This document shows positions 32,903 through 34,689 of a DNA stretch of 64,000 nt, one piece after another. The stretch lies in NCBI RefSeq assembly GCF_003334315.1, contig NZ_QOWR01000011.1. One strand, given 5' to 3'. The DNA is from Escherichia coli. Its GTDB lineage: Bacteria; Pseudomonadota; Gammaproteobacteria; Enterobacterales; Enterobacteriaceae. The translations under genes were made by a program, and so were the position numbers. Positions within the stretch are counted from its first letter, which is position 1, and every line of letters begins with the position of its first letter. The notes beneath the pieces are model-generated. The model was not told the origin of the DNA and ran no database searches. It saw nothing but the letters and a program-made list of their open reading frames with translations.

Positions 32903-33235
32903 TCAGTTATCAGGCATTCTGGCCGGTGGAATAACCGCATTGGTGGCTTGCGCGTTGGCTTCGCTTTTTTCAACGCGTGAGCGCACCGAGCTGTCTTTGC
33001 GGAACACATCCCACGGCAGTAAAAGCGTGTCCATCACAGCGGTAAACGGCATATCGAGAATCGCCAGCGACTTAGTGCCCCAGTTGGTTTCATCGTCGCC
33101 AATCATGGTGGCGCTGGCGCGGGTGCCGGGATACGTTCCTTCTTTCCCCCCGGTATGGGACATCACGCTGGAGCATCCTCCGAGTAATGTCATTCCGCTG
33201 CATATCATGAACGCTAACAACACATTTCTTATCAT
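32903..33235 (-). CDS. yidQ: small lipoprotein (DUF1375 family)
   Basis: ORF track trimmed to MIRNVLLAFMICSGMTLLGGCSSV (110 aa); lipobox LGGC. Confidence 0.7.
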   Translation of the reverse strand: MIRNVLLAFMICSGMTLLGGCSSVMSHTGGKEGTYPGTRASATMIGDDETNWGTKSLAILDMPFTAVMDTLLLPWDVFRKDSSVRSRVEKSEANAQATNAVIPPARMPDN

Positions 33236-33409
33236 AATAAATTCATCTGTTGATCGTGGGTGTTGGCCTGATGAGTTATAGCGATCCCTTGCTGAAAATA
33301 ACATCATCATTACGTCGCTCTGTGGCGGCAATCGCACTTTAACGTTTCGTGCTGCCCCCTCAGTCTATGCAATAGACCATAAACTGCAAAAAAAAGTCCG
33401 CTGATAAGG

Positions 33410-33438
33410 CTTGAAAAGTTCATTTCCAGACCCATTTT
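33410..33438 (+). promoter_or_regulatory. sigma-32 heat-shock promoter of ibpAB
   Basis: -35 CTTGAAA and -10 CCCATTTT separated by 14 bp, matching the sigma-32 consensus CTTGAAA-N13-14-CCCCATnT. Confidence 0.7.
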
Positions 33439-33446
33439 TACATCGT

Positions 33447-33540
33447 AGCCGATGAGGACGCGCCTGATGGGTGTTCTGGCTACCTGACCTGTCCATTGTG
33501 GAAGGTCTTACATTCTCGCTGATTTCAGGAGCTATTGATT
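33447..33540 (+). promoter_or_regulatory. ibpA 5' UTR (about 95 nt; candidate ROSE-like RNA thermometer)
   Basis: Long structured leader between the sigma-32 promoter and the ibpA RBS; thermometer function is established knowledge, the fold was not computed. Confidence 0.45.
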
Positions 33541-33954
33541 ATGCGTAACTTTGATTTATCCCCGCTTTACCGTTCTGCTATTGGATTTGACCGTTTGTTT
33601 AACCACTTAGAAAACAACCAGAGCCAGAGTAATGGCGGCTACCCTCCGTATAACGTTGAACTGGTAGACGAAAACCATTACCGCATTGCTATCGCTGTGG
33701 CTGGTTTTGCTGAGAGCGAACTGGAAATTACCGCCCAGGATAATCTGCTGGTGGTGAAAGGTGCTCACGCCGACGAACAAAAAGAGCGCACCTATCTGTA
33801 CCAGGGCATCGCTGAACGCAACTTTGAACGCAAATTCCAGTTAGCTGAGAACATTCATGTTCGTGGGGCTAACCTGGTAAATGGTTTGCTGTATATCGAT
33901 CTCGAACGCGTGATTCCGGAAGCGAAAAAACCGCGCCGTATCGAAATCAACTAA
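33541..33954 (+). CDS. ibpA: small heat shock protein IbpA (alpha-crystallin family)
   Basis: 137-aa ORF starting [21 protein letters not shown]; alpha-crystallin domain. Confidence 0.95.
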
Positions 33955-34065
33955 TTCCCTAAGGCCGCCTGGCGCGGCCTGACATCTCCATGCTCGCCGT
34001 CAGGGAGCATATGCGAATCTTCGGATTTGCAGGTACTTACTCGCTTCTTAGAAGGAGAAATGACT

Positions 34066-34494
34066 ATGCGTAACTTCGATTTATCCCCACTGATGCGTCA
34101 ATGGATCGGTTTTGACAAACTGGCCAACGCACTGCAAAACGCCGGTGAAAGCCAGAGCTTCCCGCCGTACAACATTGAGAAAAGCGACGATAACCACTAC
34201 CGCATTACCCTTGCGCTGGCAGGTTTCCGTCAGGAAGATTTAGAGATTCAACTGGAAGGTACGCGCCTGAGCGTAAAAGGCACGCCGGAGCAGCCAAAAG
34301 AAGAGAAAAAATGGCTGCATCAAGGGCTTATGAATCAGCCATTTAGCCTGAGCTTTACGCTGGCTGAAAATATGGAAGTCTCTGGCGCAACCTTCGTAAA
34401 CGGTTTACTGCATATTGATTTAATTCGTAATGAGCCTGAACCCATCGCAGCGCAGCGTATCGCTATCAGCGAACGTCCCGCGTTAAATAGCTAA
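34066..34494 (+). CDS. ibpB: small heat shock protein IbpB
   Basis: 142-aa paralogue of ibpA starting [21 protein letters not shown]. Confidence 0.95.
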
Positions 34495-34509
34495 CTAGCT
34501 ATTCTCTTT

Positions 34510-34537
34510 GCCCCGCCATTCTGGTGGGGCTTTTTTT
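34510..34537 (+). terminator. rho-independent terminator after ibpB
   Basis: GCCCCGCCA...TGGTGGGGC stem followed by TTTTTTT. Confidence 0.75.
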
Positions 34538-34689
34538 GTCTTACTTACTCAACAATGCGTTAAATTTCGACTGTTTAAGATATTTCGGCACGTTCTTTCC
34601 CGTGATAATGTGCGCTATAAGGCAAATCTGCTTCACCGATTCAGCCATAATCCGTAGCAATTAAAATGTTATCTCAAGAGAAATGGACG

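Follow-up and report, generated by a model that had tools for sequence, protein, structure and literature searches.

Thermometers and operators at small heat-shock genes

ROSE-like RNA thermometers are defined by a 3'-proximal hairpin in which the sequence U(U/C)GCU lies opposite the Shine-Dalgarno (SD) sequence and leaves a G bulged (PMC3669281). The classical elements of alpha-proteobacteria, such as that of Bradyrhizobium hspA (Rfam family RF00435), are located upstream of small heat-shock genes and consist of several hairpins, of which the first has a GCC-N4-GG apex and the last contains U(U/C)GCU, paired to the SD with the G bulged. In Escherichia coli, a ROSE-like thermometer was described in the leader of ibpA (ROSE_2; Waldminghaus et al. 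2009, RNA Biol 6:455), and an ibpA-bgaB fusion showed 4-fold induction by temperature (PMC3669281). A further thermometer was described for E. coli ibpB, where a hairpin at the 3' end of the leader masks the SD and where the leader is also subject to repression by IbpA (Gaubig, Waldminghaus and Narberhaus 2011, Microbiology 157:66). The passages of later papers that cite Waldminghaus 2009 and Gaubig 2011 describe ibpA and ibpB as both controlled by a 5'-UTR RNA thermometer. Both 5' UTRs also act as operators, through which IbpA represses ibpA and ibpB translation, and transcription of ibpAB is stated in the literature to depend on sigma-32.

Here we analyse the corresponding part of a 64,000-nucleotide stretch of E. 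coli DNA, hereafter called the window. The part concerned is the E. coli yidQ / ibpA / ibpB region and contains this well-studied small heat-shock operon. We put at roughly 95% the probability that it is the ibpAB operon with its known layered control, comprising a sigma-32 promoter, two ROSE-type thermometers, and feedback by IbpA. The ibpA leader is the element of Waldminghaus et al. and does not differ from it. The ibpB leader has the same locus, the same proposed function and the same masking of the SD by a 3' hairpin as the known ibpB thermometer, and shares its repression by IbpA. The features of alpha-proteobacterial ROSE elements listed above are shared too, but neither E. coli leader is similar enough in sequence to reach the threshold of the RF00435 model, and the ibpB copy is situated between cistrons, not at a 5' end.

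The locus and its genes

Of 5426 complete E. coli genomes, 5420 had a single match to a query of the 830 bases from 33236 to 34065, in every case on the chromosome, and in 4956 of the 5420 the identity was at least 99%. E. coli chromosomes that are 100% identical to the query carry RefSeq annotations of ibpA, ibpB and a ROSE element, and we converted the annotation of these identical copies into window coordinates. The first-pass annotation had called this stretch the ibpAB heat-shock locus, and RefSeq has ibpA, ibpB and the ROSE element at exactly these positions. Every element that it listed was confirmed in the sequence, with small refinements of coordinates only.

The span runs from the first base past yidQ, which is annotated by RefSeq on the minus strand at 32903-33235, to the last base before ibpB. 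The ibpA coding sequence (33541-33954, plus strand) encodes a small heat-shock protein of 137 amino acids; its ATG is at 33541 and its stop codon ends at 33954. In the RefSeq annotation, ibpB (34066-34494, plus strand) encodes 142 amino acids, and yidE follows from 34690. The ibpB ATG at 34066 is kept across species, whereas an ATG slightly upstream, at 34060, is not. The operon ends in an intrinsic terminator (34510-34537, plus strand) whose stem at 34510-34530 has 9 base pairs, 7 of them G-C, and is followed by a run of T. Sub-threshold matches to small RNAs at 34404-34538 (Hrs1, anti-hemB, PrrF and GcvB) were rejected as candidates, as they reflect merely this terminator hairpin.

The sigma-32 promoter and the DNA upstream of it

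A sigma-32 promoter can be read directly from the plus strand upstream of ibpA. Its -35 element, CTTGAAA (33410-33416), includes the whole of the sigma-32 consensus CTTGAA, and its -10 element, CCCATTTT (33431-33438), has ACCCAT in place of the consensus CCCCAT. The two are separated by a 14-nt spacer, so that the promoter as a whole, CTTGAAA-N14-CCCATTTT, occupies 33410-33438. At the consensus promoter dnaK P1 the arrangement is CTTGAA-N14-CCCCAT, and the ibpA promoter (CTTGAA-N14-ACCCAT) has the same spacing, agreeing with this type at 6 of 6 positions of the -35 and at 5 of 6 of the -10, where the first C is replaced by A. The pattern CTTGAAA-N12-16-CCCAT occurs once in the 64-kb window, both strands counted together, compared with 0.05 occurrences expected from dinucleotide shuffles.

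Conservation was assessed in approximately 76 species of Enterobacteriaceae, which yielded 76 distinct upstream sequences. CTTGAAA is invariant in 75 of these, variation of the -10 element is limited to C(C/A/T)CA(T/C)TTT, and the spacing is fixed. Column identity is 0.90 in the -35 and 0.88 in the -10 element, versus 0.38 to 0.44 in the promoter spacer and the flanks. The first-pass annotation regarded this as an unusually good sigma-32 promoter, and the claim is borne out by a match that is near consensus, differs from dnaK P1 by one mismatch and is kept across genera. Judged by its letters, "near-consensus" is a fair description of the ibpA promoter.

About 175 bp of the span (33236-33409) lie upstream of the promoter and were absent from the first-pass annotation. 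This DNA contains conserved blocks that may represent a divergent promoter of yidQ; a literature search on the regulation of yidQ found nothing relevant. We considered a structured RNA in the conserved blocks at 33238-33360 and rejected it, as RNAalifold assigns them -2.6 kcal/mol on one strand and -0.35 kcal/mol on the other, and there is zero covariation. A sigma-54 promoter in the upstream block TGGCGGCAATCGCA was likewise discarded by eye, the distance between GG and GC being 10 nt and not 12.

The ibpA leader

The ibpA 5' leader (33445-33540, plus strand) is approximately 96 nt long, its start having been placed by the position of the -10 element (about 7 nt past it) and by the published length. 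A review quotes 96 nt, and the figure of roughly 95 nt in the first-pass annotation is in agreement. Three hairpins are predicted in this leader, upstream of a gene of the alpha-crystallin-type small heat-shock family; ROSE elements have two to four. Stem-loop 1 (33445-33483, plus strand; -18.5 kcal/mol at 37 °C) has the apex CGC-G-CC UGAU GG GUG with a bulged G, and contains a YGCC-N4-GGG motif that about 71 of 77 species share. Stem-loop 2 (33486-33507, plus strand; -9.0 kcal/mol at 37 °C) contains an invariant CCUGUCC.

Stem-loop 3 (33515-33531, plus strand) holds the SD and is the weakest element of the leader, at -4.6 kcal/mol at 37 °C. In this hairpin the anti-SD sequence CUC-G-CUG (33515-33521) lies opposite the SD sequence CAGGAG (33526-33531), and the structure line of the Rfam family leaves the G unpaired. 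The 17-nt hairpin, CTCGCTGATTTCAGGAG, is unchanged in 69 of 77 species and unchanged or nearly so in all 77. The weakness of the SD hairpin relative to the rest of the leader fits the published phrase "stable and unstable structural elements".

The Rfam model of ROSE_2 (RF01832) matches 33475-33547 on the plus strand, which is the same span that RefSeq annotates as ROSE. The match scores 100.4 bits against a gathering threshold of 65 (E = 2.6e-23) and covers model positions 1-73 of 73; by covariance-model score, the ibpA leader is a member of ROSE_2. The model spans only the 3' 73 nt of the region, and most of stem-loop 1 lies outside it.

The ibpB leader

Between ibpA and ibpB is a spacer of 111 nt (33955-34065, plus strand) that forms the ROSE-like leader of ibpB and contains four hairpins. 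Hairpin 1 (H1; 33962-33980, plus strand; -13.9 kcal/mol) pairs GGCCGC with GCGGCC, starts 7 nt past the ibpA stop codon and is followed by no U-tract; within it lies the GC-rich inverted repeat GGCCGCCTGGCGCGGCC, at 33963-33979. Hairpin 2 (H2; 33990-34010, plus strand; -10.9 kcal/mol) has the form AUGCUC-G-CC GUCA GG GAGCAU with a bulged G, and its YGCC-N4/5-GGGR motif is present in 77 of 77 species. Hairpin 3 (H3; 34012-34031, plus strand; -9.2 kcal/mol) is variable in sequence with its pairing kept, and is missing from the 92- to 94-nt spacers of the Citrobacter type. Hairpin 4 (H4; 34040-34057, plus strand; -5.1 kcal/mol) is the weakest element of the leader and holds the SD, the anti-SD sequence CUC-G-CUUC (34040-34047) pairing with GAAGGAG (34051-34057).

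A scan of one genome per species provided 80 ibpAB loci, with IbpB proteins that are 81 to 100% identical. Both genes are complete in 78 loci, and in every one of these ibpA and ibpB are neighbours, separated by a long spacer (92 to 237 nt). The sequence CU(C/U)GCUUC-NNN-GAAGGAG is found at 77 of 77 loci, while its loop, the flank upstream of it and the stretch from the SD to the ATG vary. The ibpB leader carries the defining ROSE features in all 77 species. We also considered GCCGUCAGGG of H2 as a new invariant motif. This candidate was abandoned, since its loop letters vary over the 77 loci, where only GCC..GGG is fixed, and since this hairpin also belongs to the classical ROSE consensus.

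The four-hairpin consensus was derived from an alignment of 42 spacers of 100 to 120 nt, from 42 species. Standard pairs occupy 97.7% of the cells of this structure, versus 40 to 57% when the 3' partners are slid by 1 to 3 columns. Compensatory double changes occur at 10 of 25 pairs, and the covariation score is 0.296, compared with 0.152 in shuffled alignments, of which none in 500 reached the observed value. H1 to H3 have 95 to 98% of their cells paired. The lower of these figures belongs to H1, where 3 pairs show compensatory changes; in H3 such changes affect all 4 of the scored pairs. H4 is paired in 100% of cells, with the G unpaired in the consensus fold, and the sole substitution in it, U for C, results in a G-U pair. 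The four-hairpin structure is thus backed by covariation and is not due to chance.

The first-pass annotation had described a structured 110-nt spacer with GC-rich inverted repeats. Its length (111 nt) and its structure are as described, but the repeat that was stressed, H1, does not occlude the SD, which is masked by H4 at the far end of the spacer.

Relationship between the two leaders

The ibpB thermometer falls outside every curated RNA family. A search of 1.7 kb against Rfam gave no match on the ibpB spacer at E <= 1. When the spacer was searched alone, the top three of 4227 Rfam families were the three ROSE families, none of which reached its gathering score: ROSE scored 19.3 bits (threshold 45), ROSE_3 18.5 bits (43) and ROSE_2 15.2 bits (65).

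We then used a covariance model built from the alignment of ibpB leaders. This model found all 80 ibpB leaders, at 59 to 129 bits, and its only other consistent matches were the ibpA leaders belonging to these loci, with scores of up to 31 bits (E = 2.6e-6). Within the window, the ibpA leader is the sole other match of the model below an E-value of 1 (15.2 bits, E = 0.021). In the resulting alignment H2 corresponds to the apex of stem-loop 1, H3 to stem-loop 2 and H4 to stem-loop 3; H1 is unmatched, and the ibpA leader has no counterpart of it. The classical ROSE model, RF00435, places its own first hairpin, with GCC-N4-GG, on H2.

On these sequence comparisons, the ibpB leader is a diverged ROSE element and a paralogue of the ibpA leader, and its origin would most simply be a copy of the ibpA leader that was duplicated along with the gene. 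A broader proposal is that the ibpB leaders form an Enterobacteriaceae-wide ROSE subfamily that is missed by Rfam and arose with the ibpA/ibpB duplication, and that the bulged-G hairpin shared by the leaders (YGCC-N4-GGGR; stem-loop 1 and H2) is also the determinant by which IbpA oligomers recognise both mRNAs. Taken with all of its parts, we think this proposal distinctly unlikely.

Folding at different temperatures

Minimum free energy structures and pairing probabilities were calculated from 20 to 50 °C for the leaders in full and for their hairpins in isolation. On going from 30 to 42 °C, the SD in its full-length context loses little pairing probability (0.61 to 0.55 for ibpA, 0.85 to 0.84 for ibpB), and each SD hairpin on its own is predicted to remain folded until about 55 °C. 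In each leader the SD hairpin is nonetheless the least stable, at -4.6 and -5.1 kcal/mol versus -9 to -18.5 kcal/mol for the other hairpins. We also ranked 41 annotated neighbouring genes by SD pairing, using for all of them positions -14 to -6 in 100 nt of upstream context. By this uniform measure ibpA is 32nd and ibpB 7th.

The first-pass annotation had suggested folding the leaders at 30 and 42 °C, and would have taken an unstructured leader or an unpaired SD as evidence against a thermometer. Its expectation was correct in that both leaders are structured and carry the SD within the last hairpin, but the calculation does not separate them from ordinary genes. By this measure a bona fide thermometer comes close to being refuted. 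The folding result is uninformative, and not contrary to a thermometer, because ROSE elements sense temperature through non-canonical pairs that are outside the energy model. The nearest-neighbour model is also blind to competition by the ribosome. Folding at two temperatures combined with a check of SD pairing can thus neither confirm nor refute an RNA thermometer. Since a textbook thermometer ranks 32nd of 41 by SD pairing, scans for such elements should instead use covariance models and comparative data.

Discussion

Under the layered control that we favour, heat or misfolded protein would stabilise sigma-32 (RpoH), which would raise the level of a bicistronic mRNA from the promoter at 33410-33438. 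The ibpA leader would fold into two stable 5' hairpins and then a weak 3' one, whose SD is paired imperfectly around the bulged G. At low temperature the SD hairpin would block the 30S subunit, and warming would open it and allow initiation. The 111-nt spacer would serve as a second ROSE-like thermometer, with H1 as an extra GC-rich hairpin just past the ibpA stop codon. IbpA oligomers would repress both cistrons via the same leaders until they are titrated by protein aggregates. For temperature-dependent translation, sigma-32 dependence and IbpA binding this scheme relies on the literature, and the identities and structures were computed here. Control of both genes by RNA thermometers, as proposed in the first-pass annotation, is upheld by the ROSE_2 score for ibpA, by the ROSE features in 77 of 77 species for ibpB, and by the published view.

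The weight of the thermometer within this scheme could be smaller than we suppose if the leaders were mainly protein operators, with IbpA oligomers as repressors, aggregates that sequester IbpA as the signal, and melting as a secondary matter. IbpA has been found to repress via the ibpA and ibpB 5' UTRs in published reporter and cell-free experiments, in which weakening any of stem-loops 1 to 3 relieved repression. The small melting predicted at 42 °C points the same way, as does the conservation of the stable hairpins beyond what their helices need, namely GCC..GGG in H2 and stem-loop 1 and CCUGUCC in stem-loop 2. However, operator function does not exclude a thermometer, the same papers coupling both mechanisms, and ROSE elements with the same GCC-N4-GG hairpin occur in alpha-proteobacteria, where autoregulation of the IbpA type is not known to occur. 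We therefore regard a mainly operator role as rather unlikely. A question of its own is raised by H1, which, instead of being part of a thermometer, might attenuate transcription, or stabilise a 3' end and so uncouple the mRNA levels of ibpA and ibpB. The most stable hairpin of the spacer, H1 begins 7 nt downstream of the ibpA stop codon, is kept with compensatory changes, and has neither a role in SD pairing nor a counterpart in the ibpA leader. The ibpAB transcript is also reportedly processed into monocistronic RNAs, which we count in favour of such a role. Against attenuation, an intrinsic terminator at H1 was rejected, as its stem is followed by UGACAUCUCC, which contains no U-tract, and a terminator scan is silent on H1 and reports only the stem at 34510-34530. 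On the whole we give this account of H1 a chance only a little short of even. We infer that H1 lies outside the sensor, as a 3'-end protector or a processing landmark of the ibpA mRNA.

It is also conceivable that ibpB has a sigma-54 promoter of its own inside the ibpA coding sequence, in which case the spacer would be the 5' leader of a monocistronic ibpB mRNA. The candidate, TGGTAAATGGTTTGCTGT (33875-33892), is of the -24/-12 type, with GG and GC 12 nt apart. Zhao et al. 2010 list the same site, with ibpB as their positive control for sigma-54 ChIP, and the coordinates they give, -185 to -168, agree exactly with it when numbered from the earlier ibpB start, 34060. Genome-wide sigma-54 ChIP-seq, however, gave only background signal at ibpB, and the promoter was called misannotated there; the conservation of the site is unusable as evidence, as it lies within a coding sequence that is conserved already. 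We consider this promoter improbable. Finally, the structures and motifs could be chance features of an ordinary intergenic region, as might be thought from the thermodynamic SD pairing, which is unremarkable next to that of neighbouring genes. The E-value of 2.6e-23 for ROSE_2, covariation above both the shuffled and the slid controls, an anti-SD sequence that stays the same in 77 of 77 species next to a variable loop and flanks, and a promoter pattern expected 0.05 times per window together refute this explanation, and we attach practically no probability to it. The ibpAB operon with two ROSE-type thermometers under sigma-32 and IbpA remains our preferred reading.

The promoter, the thermometers and the IbpA loop were already known from roughly three decades of experimental characterisation. 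What we add is modest: covariation across 80 species in the four-hairpin leader of ibpB, the absence of this leader from the curated families, and evidence for the paralogy of the two leaders. Although its structure is conserved in all 80 of the species sampled, Rfam does not detect the ibpB thermometer at its curated thresholds. With a dedicated family, or with a widened seed alignment for ROSE_2, genome annotation could capture it.

Variation among ibpB leaders

The ibpA-ibpB intergenic spacer, which forms the ibpB leader and is 111 nucleotides long in E. coli (33955-34065), sorts into length classes across Enterobacteriaceae loci, and hairpins 1, 2 and 4 (33962-33980, 33990-34010 and 34040-34057 in E. 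coli) are present in every class. Citrobacter-type spacers (L008-L016, L020, L024 and L025 in our one-genome-per-species set of ibpAB loci) are 92 to 94 nucleotides long and lack hairpin 3 (34012-34031). Those of the Enterobacter type, found in Enterobacter, Lelliottia and Leclercia (L040, L041, L048, L051, L056, L064, L071, L075, L079 and L080), are ~136 nucleotides long, and in them an additional hairpin, GCACA-N9-TGTGC, separates hairpins 3 and 4; their hairpin 2 loop has 5 nucleotides rather than 4. At the Citrobacter sp. Awk 4 locus (L068, 2261-2509), the spacer measures 237 nucleotides and matches the covariance model built from aligned ibpB leaders twice, with 71.5 and 40.8 bits. This leader appears, as judged by the model, to be a tandem duplication.

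For the E. coli spacer, folding predictions at 45°C or higher switch to a minimum-energy structure in which UCUCC (33984-33988), upstream of hairpin 2, pairs with GGAGA (34054-34058) of the Shine-Dalgarno sequence. If real, UCUCC would be a second, long-range anti-Shine-Dalgarno element. UCUCC varies even within Escherichia, so the switch is probably a prediction artefact.

Start site and overlapping annotations of ibpB

The ibpB start region, ATGACTATG (34060-34068), offers two in-frame ATG codons. That at 34060 lies 2 nucleotides past the Shine-Dalgarno sequence and is not kept in other genera. The codon at 34066 is 8 nucleotides from the Shine-Dalgarno sequence and is conserved everywhere in the species comparison, which supports the current annotation of a 142-amino acid protein starting at 34066. 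The coordinates published for a sigma-54 promoter of ibpB (-185 to -168) match only when numbering begins at the older ibpB start, 34060. This site, TGGTAAATGGTTTGCTGT (33875-33892), lies inside the ibpA coding sequence; one sigma-54 ChIP study took it as a positive control (PMC2831329), and a genome-wide study saw no signal above background there and termed it misannotated (PMC4591121).

Below-threshold Rfam matches at 34404-34538 to the unrelated sRNA families Hrs1, anti-hemB, PrrF, ncS54 and GcvB all stack on the ibpB terminator hairpin. We rejected an sRNA here, as the matches mirror a generic terminator shape.

Conserved blocks between yidQ and ibpA

Upstream of the sigma-32 promoter, the region 33262-33400 contains several near-invariant blocks among the 75 to 78 Enterobacteriaceae species compared: GTTATAGCG (33275-33283), C(T/A)CTGTGGCGG..ATCGCA (33318-33337), CAGTCTA (33361-33367) and AAACTGCAAAAAAA (33381-33394). 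No covarying RNA structure was detected at these blocks on either strand. In minus-strand orientation, the CAGTCTA and AAACTGCAAAAAAA blocks correspond to TTGCA(G/C)-N16/17-TA(G/C)ACT, found in 73 of 78 sequences, and this arrangement is a candidate promoter for divergent transcription of yidQ. A simple promoter scan did not detect it, and a literature search turned up nothing on yidQ regulation. If the assignment is correct, yidQ would have a leader of ~120 nucleotides enclosing the blocks at 33275-33283 and 33318-33337.
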